Below, in pieces: positions 1 to 5,309 of a DNA stretch of 64,000 bases. A program made the position numbers and the translations under genes. The stretch comes from Escherichia phage ECML-359: sequence record OL631482.1; one strand, given 5' to 3'. The notes below the pieces were generated by a model that had not been told where the DNA came from, did no database searches, and saw only the letters and a list, made by a program, of their open reading frames with translations. Position 1 is the stretch's first letter. Each line of letters begins with the position of its first letter.

Positions 1-249
1 GACACCGTTTTCAACTTCGCCGCCGTTGTTTTCAATTTCATCTTTAAACCACTGGGAGCACTCATAACCGACAGGATAATATGTACGGCCTGAACCATAA
101 TCACCGGTACCGAATTGGATACCATATTCATCTGCGATTTCTTCACAGTGTTTTTCAATTTCAGAGGTCTTATTTAGAAGAGAATAGATAGCTTTTTCTG
201 CAGATTTCTCATCATAATACTTGGGGATAGCAATTTCAATTTTATTCAT
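1..249 (-). CDS. hypothetical protein, N-terminal part only (continues past window start)
   Basis: Hand translation of minus strand from ATG at 249-247 gives MNKIEIAIPKYYDEKSAEKAIYSLLNKTSEIEKHCEEIADEYGIQFG... with no stop to position 1; ATGA overlap with stop of ORF 246..599. Confidence 0.4.
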   Translation of the reverse strand, partial: MNKIEIAIPKYYDEKSAEKAIYSLLNKTSEIEKHCEEIADEYGIQFGTGDYGSGRTYYPVGYECSQWFKDEIENNGGEVENGV

Positions 250-599
250 GATTTACATTCCTTAATAAAGGTTTCAAGGTCATTACGTTTTGTTTTGTCT
301 AGGAACTTATTATACTCAGCCATTGCTGAAGCGTATCTCTTCCGACTAGGAGCATTCAAGGCATTTGTGTGACAGATATCATACACAACAGGGATAAAAT
401 AAGCCACAACAGCCGGAGCGATTATCATAAAGAAGCCCATCTCAATAGGCATGACTCCCTCGATTGCAGCCATAACCGTGGTCATTACCAGACCAACCAA
501 ACCACCAAGCATACCGGTAGCAATCCCTAATAATAAATTGGCACCAATATCATATTCAGCCAATTGATAAACATGTGATGCAAGACTAGGCCGTTCCAT
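246..599 (-). CDS. small membrane protein, unknown function
   Basis: ORF track 246..692 trimmed to ATG (MERPSLASH...) preceded by GGAGG; two hydrophobic helices; C-terminal charged tail ...ETFIKECKS. Confidence 0.55.
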   Translation of the reverse strand: MERPSLASHVYQLAEYDIGANLLLGIATGMLGGLVGLVMTTVMAAIEGVMPIEMGFFMIIAPAVVAYFIPVVYDICHTNALNAPSRKRYASAMAEYNKFLDKTKRNDLETFIKECKS

Positions 600-945
600 T
601 ACGAACCTCCTTAATAAATTCTTCGGCACATTTAATTTTGTGCTCTTCTTGTAGGGAAACACATTTTTGTTCCCACTCTTTAACTCGTCCACGATATCCT
701 TTATTCATATGATTTTGATGCCACACATTTATCAAAATCATACTCAGGACTGTAATAAAAGGAGCTGCAATTATTAGTGCCCAGGCGACTCCAACACTAA
801 TGATACCCATATCTCCACAAACAACCATCATTATAACCCCAACGATGCACATGGACAGCGCCCCAAATGGAGGCATAAGGTCTTTATCAATCTTGTCTGC
901 ATATACAAATTTTTCTGGTTTACTTGGCAGATATAGCGTTCGCAT
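586..945 (-). CDS. small membrane protein, unknown function (paralog-like of 246..599)
   Basis: ORF track 586..981 trimmed to ATG (MRTLYLPSK...) with AAGGGG RBS; two hydrophobic helices; C-terminal ...EEFIKEVRNGTA resembles neighbour. Confidence 0.5.
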   Translation of the reverse strand: MRTLYLPSKPEKFVYADKIDKDLMPPFGALSMCIVGVIMMVVCGDMGIISVGVAWALIIAAPFITVLSMILINVWHQNHMNKGYRGRVKEWEQKCVSLQEEHKIKCAEEFIKEVRNGTA

Positions 946-1474
946 TTTGAACCCCTTTAGCATATTCACGACATTCAGCAATAAAACGATTAAGTTTACG
1001 TTTCCGTTTACGACTTTCTAATGTGTACTCAGCCGCCAAATCAAGAAGCTCATCTTTATCATAATTTTTAATATCCGTATAAGCGGGACGACGGTCAACC
1101 ATTCCAAAGTGGTCACCATTTTCTAACATCAAATAACACACCAAATGGTCATCATCGTCCGCATTAGTAAGCTGTTTATAATCACTTGGTTCGTTTAAAG
1201 CATATACTGAATAACGTAGTCCAGCGAATTCCACTCGTTGAATACCCAGATTTACATCAATAATTTCCAAGGCATCTGCGAAAGAAAGGTCTTCAGCTAA
1301 AGCAAAAATAAAAGGCAATTTGGTAGTATCGCCGCGACTTGTTGTTCTTCTTAAGAAATCATTGGAATAGCCCAAGTCGCGGCGGATTCTATAAAGAACT
1401 GTGTTAGTTTCAGTGGCAAGACCACTACCGCCAAACCATTCCACATTTGATAAAAGATTATCATATAAAGTCAT
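920..1474 (-). CDS. hypothetical protein
   Basis: ORF track 920..1492 trimmed to ATG (MTLYDNLLSN...) preceded by GGAGAGGAG; acidic patch DDDDH; basic RKRKRK segment. Confidence 0.6.
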   Translation of the reverse strand: MTLYDNLLSNVEWFGGSGLATETNTVLYRIRRDLGYSNDFLRRTTSRGDTTKLPFIFALAEDLSFADALEIIDVNLGIQRVEFAGLRYSVYALNEPSDYKQLTNADDDDHLVCYLMLENGDHFGMVDRRPAYTDIKNYDKDELLDLAAEYTLESRKRKRKLNRFIAECREYAKGVQNANAISAK

Positions 1475-1494: not shown

Positions 1495-1514
1495 AAGGGG
1501 GCTTTGCCCCCTTT
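1495..1514 (-). terminator. hairpin terminator
   Basis: aagggggctttgccccc followed by ttt. Confidence 0.45.
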
Positions 1515-1517
1515 ATC

Positions 1518-2111
1518 TTACTTAAGTGAATTGATGTATTCTTCAATGTCAGCGGACGTGGTATCCACACCAACCTGTGGACCTTTGAAGGTTTCAACAC
1601 GCATCAAGGTGTCTTCAATATCAATCTTAGTCAATGCAGCGATTTCAACAACATCATCTGCAGTCGCAATACCCAGGGCAGATACCTTACGGGTTTCGCG
1701 GATGTATTCCAGTTTAACAGCTAGTTCCTGACGAGAATCATCCAGCTCTTTAACTTTCAATTTAATTTCATTACGCATTTCAACATAATCGTCTGCCTTC
1801 TTACGAAGTTGTTTAGCAGTGCGACGATACAGGAGACCCAGTTTAGCATGGACCTGGACATCCGCGCCATCAGCAATCAGTTTGCGGATTTCACGCTCTT
1901 TTGAAGCGGCGAGTTGGTCTTTTTCATTCGCTAACTCGCGGATGCGTTTTTCTTCATTAACAGACTTAACGTGGGCGGTCTGGAGCTCAGTAATCTTGTC
2001 AATCAGGGTAGACGCCGCTTGAGTATATTGGTCTTCAATAGACAGGTTTTTTGCCATTGCAGTACCCAGTTTGGAGCGGATGAATTCAACAAGTTTCTTT
2101 AAAGTATTCAT
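1518..2111 (-). CDS. coiled-coil protein, unknown function (weak PspA/IM30-like heptad pattern)
   Basis: 197-aa ORF, strongly heptad-patterned charged sequence; hairpin terminator downstream at about 1495-1514. Confidence 0.6.
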
Positions 2112-2183
2112 GGTATTTCCTTCAGTTGGTTAATGTTTTATTATCCAGGGAACATACTATCATGTTCCCATTAAAGCACTAAT

Positions 2184-2572: not shown

Positions 2573-3004
2573 TTAAATTTCAAATTCTTTGCGGAAGTTG
2601 GAAGCATAAGACTGAACTGATGCTTTGTTGAATCCAAACTCACGCACAATCATATCAATAACAGCTCTGCGAGCAGCACCATTAGACATATTAACAGTTT
2701 TGAACATATCATAGCATAAATCTTTGTTGCTCATACCGGAGCGTTTAGGTGCCTTACGTTCAGCTTTAGGAGTAGGTTTAACTTCTGGTTTAACCTGTCC
2801 ATCATTCAGACCTTTAAAAATTTTACCTGCCAGAGTTGCCAGTTTAGCAGCTTCGCCACGAGTGATACCAAATACTGCCGGGTTAAATGAAATACCTTCA
2901 GCTGCCAGACGTTTGAAGAACATACGTGCTGCGGATTGTGCTTCAGCTTCAGAAGAGTTGTTTAATGCCAGCTTAACGTACTTAACCAGTTTTGAAGTTT
3001 TCAT
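2573..3004 (-). CDS. hypothetical early protein with shared C-terminal module
   Basis: 143-aa ORF; C-terminal NGAARRAVIDMIVREFGFNKASVQSYASNFRKEF shared with 3087..3512; own early promoter 3005-3086. Confidence 0.65.
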   Translation of the reverse strand: MKTSKLVKYVKLALNNSSEAEAQSAARMFFKRLAAEGISFNPAVFGITRGEAAKLATLAGKIFKGLNDGQVKPEVKPTPKAERKAPKRSGMSNKDLCYDMFKTVNMSNGAARRAVIDMIVREFGFNKASVQSYASNFRKEFEI

Positions 3005-3086
3005 TTTATTCTCCAGTGTTTTATTTGGTAACTCAGTATGGGATAATTATACACTATCCCACTTGGAAGTAAAACACTTTTCTCAA
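3005..3086 (-). promoter_or_regulatory. early promoter (-35 GTTTTAC, 17-nt spacer, -10 TATAAT) with -10 in the loop of a gggata/tatccc stem-loop
   Basis: minus-strand reading GTTTTACttccaagtgggatagtgTATAATtatccca...GGAG. Confidence 0.6.
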
Positions 3087-3512
3087 TTATTTTTGAGCTT
3101 TGCGGAAGTTGGAAGCATATGACTGAACAACAGTCTTTTTGATATCATGGGTGTTAACCAGAACATCAATCAGGGCGCGGCGAGCTGCACCATCTGCCAT
3201 ATCAATTTCTGCAAATGCCTGGAAGCAAATGTCACGAGCATTACCAGATTTGGACTGGATTTTTTCTTCTTTAACTTCTTCAATTGGGAATTCAATCATT
3301 TCAGCTTGGATTAATTCAATGATAGATTCTTTTGACTGTTTGGTGTTTACCTTCAGTTCAGAATTAAGGGACTTAGCGATGGCAACAATCTGGGTTGAAG
3401 TCAGATGAATAAGTGCATCTTCACGAATGCAGATTTCACATACTTCGTCGGCAACCATTTTGTTAGTGATGCGGGTAACAGAGAATGCAGAAGTCAGGGT
3501 CAGGAAGTTCAT
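3087..3512 (-). CDS. hypothetical early protein with shared C-terminal module
   Basis: ORF track 3087..3593 trimmed to ATG (MNFLTLTS...) with GGAGA RBS; C-terminal DGAARRALIDVLV...VVQSYASNFRKAQK. Confidence 0.6.
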   Translation of the reverse strand: MNFLTLTSAFSVTRITNKMVADEVCEICIREDALIHLTSTQIVAIAKSLNSELKVNTKQSKESIIELIQAEMIEFPIEEVKEEKIQSKSGNARDICFQAFAEIDMADGAARRALIDVLVNTHDIKKTVVQSYASNFRKAQK

Positions 3513-3600
3513 TTTATTTCTCCAAAGTTTTGTTTGATTCAGTGTGTAACTCAGTATGGAATCATTATGCATCCAGTCAATTCGGATGTACACTACTTTT
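3513..3600 (-). promoter_or_regulatory. early promoter (-35 GTGTAC, 17-nt spacer, -10 CATAAT) with conserved leader
   Basis: same leader ccatactgagtta... as neighbouring cassettes. Confidence 0.55.
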
Positions 3601-5156: not shown

Positions 5157-5233
5157 TGGTCGGGGTGGTGGGATTCTAACCCACAACCTACGGTTTAGAA
5201 GACCGTTGCTCTATACAATTGAGCTACACCCCG
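5157..5233 (-). tRNA. tRNA-Arg (anticodon TCT)
   Basis: Hand-folded cloverleaf: acceptor CGGGGTG/CACCCCG, anticodon loop CTTCTAA, T-arm GTGGG-TTAGAAT-CCCAC, encoded CCA. Confidence 0.85.
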
Positions 5234-5309
5234 GGTGGCCCCATCCGGACTTGAACCGGAAACCTGCCAGTTATGAGCCGGATGCTCTAACCAATTGAGC
5301 TACAGGGCC
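5234..5309 (-). tRNA. tRNA with CAT anticodon (Met by anticodon; the T4 counterpart with CAU is tRNA-Ile)
   Basis: acceptor GGCCCTG/TGGGGCC, D-arm GCTCAATTGGTTAGAGC, anticodon loop CTCATAA, T-arm CCGG-TTCAAGT-CCGG; directly abuts tRNA-Arg. Confidence 0.8.

Follow-up and report, generated by a model that had tools for sequence, protein, structure and literature searches.

Do T4-like phages carry a membrane-protecting protein of their own? The question is raised by one gene in a 64,000-nucleotide stretch of Escherichia phage ECML-359 (sequence record OL631482.1; the whole stretch is referred to here as the window), which a sequence-only reading had described, giving no strand, as encoding an early coiled-coil protein reminiscent of the PspA/IM30/ESCRT-III family. 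The open reading frame (ORF) was found on the minus strand as the ortholog of T4 e.6, and the peptide quoted in that reading corresponds to residues 36-78 of its product. PspA, Vipp1 and ESCRT-III represent a universal cellular machinery for membrane repair and remodelling. Here, we find that the e.6 protein is very probably a genuine and very divergent homolog of PspA/IM30 and, by analogy with its cellular relatives, that T4-like phages probably do carry a membrane-protecting protein. The gene in question is the following:

1518-2111, minus strand: e.6 ortholog, coding sequence of 197 amino acids plus stop (ATG at 2111-2109, stop at 1520-1518), whose product is very probably a divergent PspA/IM30-family protein.

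The window belongs to a T4-like (Tevenvirinae) genome: over its first 6 kb it shares 98% identity with Escherichia phage pEC-M719-6WT.2, and this part has matches in hundreds of Tequatrovirus relatives. The gene order is that of T4, running from a variable e.7-like gene through e.6, e.5, e.4 and e.3 towards nudE and e. A GAAGGA ribosome-binding site is located 6 nt 5′ of the e.6 ATG. The e.6 ortholog is a real gene, because 1,110 phage records contain a full-length match to its product (tblastn), the product shares 75% identity with T4 e.6 (NP_049742, annotated as 'conserved hypothetical protein') and matches PHROG 1203 (function unknown) with an E-value of 2e-84, and the T4 protein (UniProt P39224) has been detected by proteomics (PMC9697503, supplementary files 4 and 6).

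The homology to PspA/IM30 was assessed with hhalign by aligning profiles of 73 e.6-family sequences and 16 PspA/IM30 sequences. The latter set, which covers the E. coli clade and Aeromonas, Synechocystis Vipp1 (taken from PDB alignments), a copy on an actinobacterial plasmid and two contigs from the gut, combines the PDB Vipp1 sequence with tblastn hits to plasmids and phages; other homolog collections gave only close Enterobacterales relatives. The e.6 family was matched to PspA/Vipp1 with a probability of 92.3-92.6% (P 5e-7, score 50), a result reproduced by a second implementation, and the alignment begins at residue 1 of both families and continues in register for approximately 200 columns. 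Decoys that preserve composition and helicity scored far lower, with 17 for the reversed profile, 12.7±1.7 (maximum 17) for column-shuffled profiles and 15.7±2.5 (maximum 23) for profiles shuffled in 7-column blocks. The N-terminal helix, termed α0 in PspA, aligns by itself from 1-22 to 1-22 with PspA α0 (score 21.7, P 1.5e-6, compared with 7.7 for the reversed control). Two records, MT835668.1 and MT839532.1 ('UNVERIFIED Bacteriophage sp.', from human faeces), served solely as profile members; they encode ordinary full-length PspA proteins that share 31% and 28% identity with the E. coli protein, and may represent bacterial contamination or other phages with canonical PspA genes.

A second line of evidence is provided by Pfam. 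When 38 family members were scanned against 24,736 Pfam families, PspA_IM30 (PF04012; gathering cut-off 33.9 bits) stood out with a best E-value of 8.9e-10, the next-best family reaching 5e-5 in a single member. Two divergent members from Ackermannviridae phages lie above the cut-off, P0073 with 39.0 bits (E 8.9e-10) and P0067 with 35.1 bits (E 1.4e-8), and a third, P0068, reaches 22.3 bits; all three align to profile positions 2-143 and come from phage genomes. They are also full-length members of the e.6 family, with E-values spanning 1e-17 to 1e-20 against the e.6 profile (9e-18 and 2e-20 for P0073 and P0067, respectively). P0073 has full-length BLAST matches to genes annotated as e.6 in Aeromonas phage 65, PEi20 and Klebsiella T4-likes, and P0073-like genes are found in Ackermannviridae genomes (Kuttervirus and Taipeivirus). 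By eye, the divergent members carry EANVNSLVQKMTDYEK where PspA has NANINALLEKAEDPQK, and a C-terminal EIEEYINSL where PspA has VEDELAALK.

The predicted structure leads to the same family. Foldseek searches combining 3Di and amino-acid information returned Vipp1 structures as all of the top 8 PDB hits for a first model (E from 3e-3) and all of the top 10 for a better model (E from 3.5e-4). Unrelated proteins followed after a gap, at E >= 0.1, and CdvB2 and PspA rods ranked lower. An independent report on Klebsiella phage Metamorpho identified gp163 as a homolog of T4 e.6 and gave an HHpred probability of 99.9% to E. coli PspA 4WHE_A (PMC7862958, a 2021 genome announcement). Along its entire length of 197 residues, the window protein shares 64% identity with Metamorpho gp163. 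The family relationship proposed in the sequence-only reading is therefore upheld by in-register profile alignments far above decoys, two Pfam passes, Vipp1 as the first Foldseek match and the published HHpred result; the profile and structure searches which that reading had suggested as a check recovered PspA and Vipp1, that is, a detectable relationship to PspA-like folds.

In sequence searches the family is closed and phage-restricted. An exhaustive hmmsearch of 1.8 billion representatives returned only 46 clusters, of which the full-length ones measure about 195-209 amino acids, the others being fragments of this family, and nothing PspA-like was found among them. Members occur in phages of Aeromonas, Serratia, Edwardsiella and Providencia as well as in Ackermannviridae, and the family is thus conserved across Straboviridae and Ackermannviridae. 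Neither T4 e.6 nor the window protein has an NCBIfam match.

How much of the PspA architecture has been retained? The window protein is mostly helical and highly charged (36% D/E/K/R, with 35 acidic and 35 basic residues) and contains one Pro, no Trp and no Cys. AlphaFold2 was run twice, with a 23-sequence alignment (A1; mean predicted local distance difference test score, pLDDT, 70.8) and with a 38-sequence alignment (pLDDT 83.6, predicted template-modelling score, pTM, 0.67). Both runs produced the same topology, comprising helices 2-22, 25-80 and 86-145, for which the better model gives pLDDT 80-98, and then short helices at 151-160, 165-170 and 186-196. The corresponding segments of the gene are:

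2046-2108, minus strand: N-terminal amphipathic helix, residues 2-22, predicted by both models; equivalent of PspA/Vipp1 α0, which is a membrane-binding helix there; net charge +4.
1872-2039, minus strand: first long hairpin helix, residues 25-80; equivalent of PspA α1, in register with PspA 25-80, with a 3.5-residue periodicity.
1857-1871, minus strand: hairpin tip DGADV, residues 81-85, placed by models and alignments.
1677-1856, minus strand: second long helix, residues 86-145; equivalent of PspA α2/α3, about 11 residues shorter than that of PspA.
1521-1676, minus strand: C-terminal region, residues 146-197, with short helices 151-160, 165-170 and 186-196 (pLDDT 52-85).

According to the models, the helix layout is PspA-like as far as the hairpin (α0, α1 and α2/3). 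Both models place a break at residues 23-24, which separates α0 from the first long helix. The hydrophobic moment (µH) of α0 is 0.35 in the window protein vs 0.40 in PspA and 0.50 in Vipp1, and in alignment A1 F10 is invariant and K5 and K14 nearly so. After the hairpin tip, a conserved motif aligns to DLARAALIEK of PspA and NLAREALARK of Vipp1; here K90, L91, L94 and R96 are invariant in A1. Residues 146-197 may correspond to PspA α4/α5: this segment is included in the full-length hhalign alignment, and its terminal motif D-[VI]-E-E-Y-[IL]-x-S-L-K resembles the D-E-L-A-A-L-K of PspA/Vipp1. The earlier description of the protein as almost entirely charged heptad repeats thus holds in part. The charge is there, and hydrophobic residues recur with a best period of 3.50 in the first long helix (p = 0.012) and 3.45 in the second (p = 0.039) when compared with shuffles; however, the heptad-like pattern is confined to residues 25-145, with a separate amphipathic helix in residues 1-22 and short helices and loops in residues 146-197, and 'almost entirely' was an overstatement.

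What might such a protein do in an infected cell? We consider it reasonably likely, by analogy with PspA, that e.6 is a phage-made PspA-like protein that binds and stabilizes the inner membrane and replaces the host psp response, with the downstream products e.5, e.4 and e.3 as possible recruiters. In the proposed scheme, the cationic α0 would bind the cytoplasmic face of the stressed, anionic inner membrane, as in PspA, LiaH and Vipp1, and the hairpins would self-assemble into ESCRT-III-like polymers. Such a polymer could seal or stabilize the stressed membrane, limit proton leakage and preserve the proton-motive force that the phage needs. Host transcription is shut off by T4, and the σ54/PspF-dependent psp operon of the host would consequently not be inducible after infection; a phage-encoded copy could then replace the missing response. 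Possible occasions include DNA injection, superinfection, holin build-up, lysis inhibition and the action of membrane-depolarizing abortive-infection effectors. At the membrane, e.5, e.4 and e.3 might recruit or regulate e.6, as PspB/PspC or LiaI do for their partners.

The time of expression bears on the word 'early' in the initial description. In T4, e.6 belongs to the early class at the RNA level and to the middle class at the protein level (PMC9697503). In the window, three signals are found around the gene:

2154-2178, minus strand: promoter-like signal upstream of e.6, with a MotA-box-like TGCTTTA (2172-2178), a 12-nt spacer and a -10-like TAGTAT (2154-2159).
2148-2169, minus strand: 9-bp stem-loop GGGAACAUG/CAUGUUCCC, -12.2 kcal/mol, z = -2.9, overlapping the -10-like TAGTAT.
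1495-1513, minus strand: GC-rich 8-bp stem-loop between e.6 and e.5, -14.7 kcal/mol, z = -2.5, picked up by a scan for terminator-like structures.

By its match to the consensus, the upstream signal resembles a middle promoter of the MotA type; a sigma-70 scan did not call the promoter-like signal at 2154-2178, and alignment with T4 shows a canonical early promoter (GTTTAC-N17-TATTAT) at the corresponding site. 'Early' is thus approximately correct: it agrees with the T4 transcript class, while the T4 protein is of the middle class and the window promoter looks like a middle one. The stem-loop at 1495-1513, which the scan flags as terminator-like on the plus strand, is probably an RNA-stabilizing or attenuating structure rather than a strong terminator, because it lacks a U-run.

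The genes that follow e.6 are candidates for its membrane partners. They are arranged as follows:

920-1474, minus strand: e.5 ortholog, 184 amino acids, soluble, ending in FIAECR, PHROG 8788; putative e.6 partner.
586-945, minus strand: e.4 ortholog, 119 amino acids, with a C-terminal cytoplasmic helix ending in FIKEVR, PHROG 2604; putative membrane anchor.
246-599, minus strand: e.3 ortholog, 117 amino acids, membrane protein containing two or more hydrophobic segments, C-terminal motif FIKECK, PHROG 2330; putative membrane anchor.

Between one and three hydrophobic segments are predicted in the e.4 and e.3 products, both of them small membrane proteins. The window e.4 is 30% identical to T4 e.4 (E 2e-14), and a hydrophobicity window predicts one transmembrane segment in the former and two in the latter. 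The e.3 ortholog matches both T4 e.3 (E 2e-8) and the e.4 ortholog of the window (E 3e-5). In T4, PEi20, Aeromonas phages 65 and P19, CfP1 and Metamorpho, too, the gene after e.6 is e.5-like.

A FVKECR-like C-terminal motif, [FYW]-[IV]-x-x-C-[RK], is common to the genes downstream of e.6 in all ten genomes examined (nine lineages plus the window), in the following forms:

Window: FIAECR (e.5), FIKEVR (e.4) and FIKECK (e.3).
T4: FVKECR, FVKESR and FVIDCR.
Aeromonas phage 65: FIKECR and FVNECR.
Aeromonas phage P19: FINYCI and FVEYCI, degenerate, the last position lacking R/K.
PEi20: FVEQCR.
CfP1: FIHSCK.
Providencia PSTRCR_127: five genes.
Metamorpho: FVKMCR and WIRSCRK.
Kuttervirus and Taipeivirus (Ackermannviridae): IVD[KR]AR.

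In its strict form, the motif occurs near the C-terminus of 2 of the 206 window ORFs, namely e.5 and e.3. While the surroundings vary, from the tRNA-e region in T4 to nrdD/nrdG in CfP1, gp31 in Aeromonas phage 65 and helicase-ligase in Kuttervirus, e.6 and the motif genes remain paired. By analogy with the Psp and Lia systems, the PspA-like protein may have its partners or anchors in e.5, e.4 and e.3. No description of a C-terminal F-[IV]-x-x-C-[RK] as a targeting motif was found in the literature searched.

Two further features were observed upstream of the e.6 block. Two adjacent ORFs, 2573-3004 and 3087-3593, both on the minus strand, have paralogous C-terminal domains (48% identity across 58 amino acids) and have in common ...GAARRAxIDxxV...VQSYASNFRK; they are absent from T4 at the corresponding position, and in the near-identical phage EAWsc9 the ORFs in the 2573-3593 stretch are labelled H15 or Rho-N domain-containing. 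At 5157-5309, minus strand, adjacent tRNA-Arg(TCT) and tRNA-Met(CAT) genes form a reduced version of the tRNA cluster that precedes the e.x genes in T4.

Several results weigh against e.6 being a PspA homolog that acts with membrane partners. The window protein itself has no match to Pfam PF04012 even at E <= 10, sequence searches of the PDB (phmmer/hmmsearch) detected no solved structure with either the protein or the family profile, and tblastn with E. coli PspA retrieved no T4-like phage, its only hits being the faecal contigs MT835668.1 and MT839532.1. In the hhalign comparison, α0 supplies about half of the score; without it the hairpin match is weak (P about 1e-3), though its register is unchanged, and the C-terminal third does not reach significance by itself (P 0.1). 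The hydrophobic moment of α0 does not rise significantly above that of shuffles (p = 0.15). As for the partners, e.3, e.4 and e.5 show no similarity to PspB/PspC and no Pfam hits, so that their proposed role draws on adjacency and a short motif only. Finally, CRISPRi-ART knock-down of T4 e.6 in the laboratory host was scored 'Not Fit', that is, it caused no fitness defect, and the same holds for the knock-downs of e.3 to e.8 (PMC11879866 supplements); the function of e.6 is therefore accessory or conditional. Could the similarity to PspA be convergent, arising from an amphipathic N-terminal helix joined to charged helices in what is otherwise a generic coiled coil? This is very unlikely, given that reversed and shuffled decoys of equal composition and helicity score far lower, that the register is exact from residue 1 through the hairpin tip, that two members pass the curated Pfam threshold while hundreds of Pfam coiled-coil families come nowhere near, and that the published HHpred probability is so high. 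More improbable still, to the point of being nearly negligible, is a virion or 'host specificity' protein. That idea has its sole support in a label: several GenBank and UniRef homologs are called 'host specificity protein', others 'gp33' or 'putative 22.0 kDa protein'. The T4 timing (early RNA and middle protein, not late), the position of the gene in the pre-late e.x block and the lack of similarity to tail-fibre or adhesin families in Pfam and PHROG searches all argue against it. The convergent coiled coil and the virion protein are both poorly supported; the 'host specificity' identity was rejected, nothing being found to support it, and the label looks like a propagated mis-annotation.

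If the homology is accepted, e.6 might still act otherwise than by protecting the membrane. As a decoy or regulator, it could bind PspF, PspB/C or host PspA (by co-polymerization) and thereby silence or subvert the envelope-stress response, or it could tune lysis timing. The part of E. coli PspA that is generally known to bind PspF falls within the conserved region (residues 1-100). In PspA/Vipp1 the C-terminal part mediates polymer contacts; in e.6 it is the most divergent and is shortened, as would suit a capping or dominant-negative subunit. Against this, the best-conserved segment is α0, the membrane-binding element, and this points to contact with the membrane; there would be little to gain from blocking PspF once host transcription has been shut off by T4, as is generally known; and the range of the family, over phages of Aeromonas, Serratia, Edwardsiella and Providencia plus Ackermannviridae, implies a generic function rather than one specific to a host regulator. 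We therefore regard a decoy as unlikely. The same applies to e.6 as the soluble scaffold of a phage membrane module with e.5, e.4 and e.3 that serves a purpose other than repair, such as superinfection exclusion, control of the DNA-injection channel or a membrane-attached site of replication or assembly; this, too, seems improbable. Its attraction lies in the pairing of e.6 with the motif genes through rearrangements in both Straboviridae and Ackermannviridae, in the specificity of the motif to these genes (2 of 206 window ORFs) and in the fact that several of them encode small membrane proteins. Yet the motif behind the putative interaction is only about six residues long, the genes are tandem paralogs whose common ancestry explains part of the similarity, and the knock-downs of e.3 to e.8 had no fitness defect. 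A membrane-stabilizing, PspA-like protein thus remains the favoured account of e.6. A more ambitious version of it, which we put forward tentatively and hold to be doubtful as a whole, is that T4-like and ViI-like phages possess a self-contained 'Psp-like' module, in which variable adaptors (e.5, e.4, e.3 and their paralogs) would recruit an e.6 polymer to the inner membrane via the C-terminal F-[IV]-x-x-C-[RK], keep the cell energized after host shut-off and neutralize membrane-depolarizing abortive-infection effectors, amounting to anti-defence by membrane repair.

The homology of e.6 to PspA is not a new discovery, having been published in one sentence of the Metamorpho announcement (PMC7862958). 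That report is limited to the sentence and did not analyse how the family is distributed, its architecture, its partner genes or what it does. The GenBank product is still 'hypothetical protein', and literature searches on e.6, NP_049742 and phage-encoded PspA/ESCRT-III retrieved nothing beyond it. What is added here is a controlled demonstration of the homology, its extension to Ackermannviridae, a map of the conserved and lost parts and a candidate partner motif. The best-studied virulent phage and more than 1,100 of its sequenced relatives carry a dedicated copy that has been essentially overlooked, the gene still being 'hypothetical' in T4, PHROGs, Pfam and GenBank. Should e.6 act like PspA, it would explain how membrane potential is maintained in infected cells after host stress responses stop, and it could bear on lysis inhibition, resistance to lysis from without and the escape of T4-like phages from membrane-depolarizing defences. 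It would also offer a small, genetically tractable and non-essential protein of the ESCRT-III superfamily for mechanistic work, and the FVKECR-type motif on its neighbours provides a concrete, testable handle on the targeting of such polymers.

Compared with known systems, e.6 is closest to PspA/IM30 (Vipp1)/LiaH (PF04012), the bacterial branch of the ESCRT-III superfamily, with which it shares the order of helices, an α0, a break at about residue 23 and an α1/α2-3 hairpin whose tip lies around residue 82. In register with this family are the xANxN-like α0 of the divergent members, the A-x-x-A/G-L at the hairpin tip and the D-E-L-x-x-L-K-like C-terminal end, and the charged composition is alike (36% in e.6 vs 37% in PspA). 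There are, however, clear distinctions. Identity between e.6 and E. coli PspA is only 8-12% in the hhalign alignments. In length, e.6 falls about 20-25 residues short of PspA, having lost about 11 in α2/3 and about 12-20 in the α4-α5 region. Its α0 is more cationic (+4, as against 0 or +2 in PspA/Vipp1), and the KAEDP motif of the PspA family is missing, with KNLSIED in its place. The likeness to ESCRT-III proper (Snf7/CHMP and CdvB) exists only at the level of the fold, via the PspA branch: Snf7 was not among the 25 most frequent of the 180 Pfam families matched by the 38 scanned members, no AAA+ gene adjoins e.6, and no Vps4-type ATPase or MIM motif was identified. Whereas PspA and LiaH are controlled by σ54/PspF or LiaRS, e.6 is encoded by a phage under phage pre-late promoter signals and, unlike in the Psp and Lia systems, is not accompanied by pspBC, pspF or liaI homologs. 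We know of no counterpart of the FVKECR-like C-terminal motif in those systems. The gene neighbourhood of the window e.6 is that of Metamorpho gp163. In the cellular systems, PspB/PspC serve PspA and the anchor LiaI serves LiaH as membrane partners. Despite an extra soluble gene, e.5, the phage arrangement is similar to that of the pspA-pspB-pspC operon and of liaI-liaH, in that a PspA-like gene adjoins co-directional genes for small inner-membrane proteins whose C-terminal helices are cytoplasmic, here e.4 and e.3.

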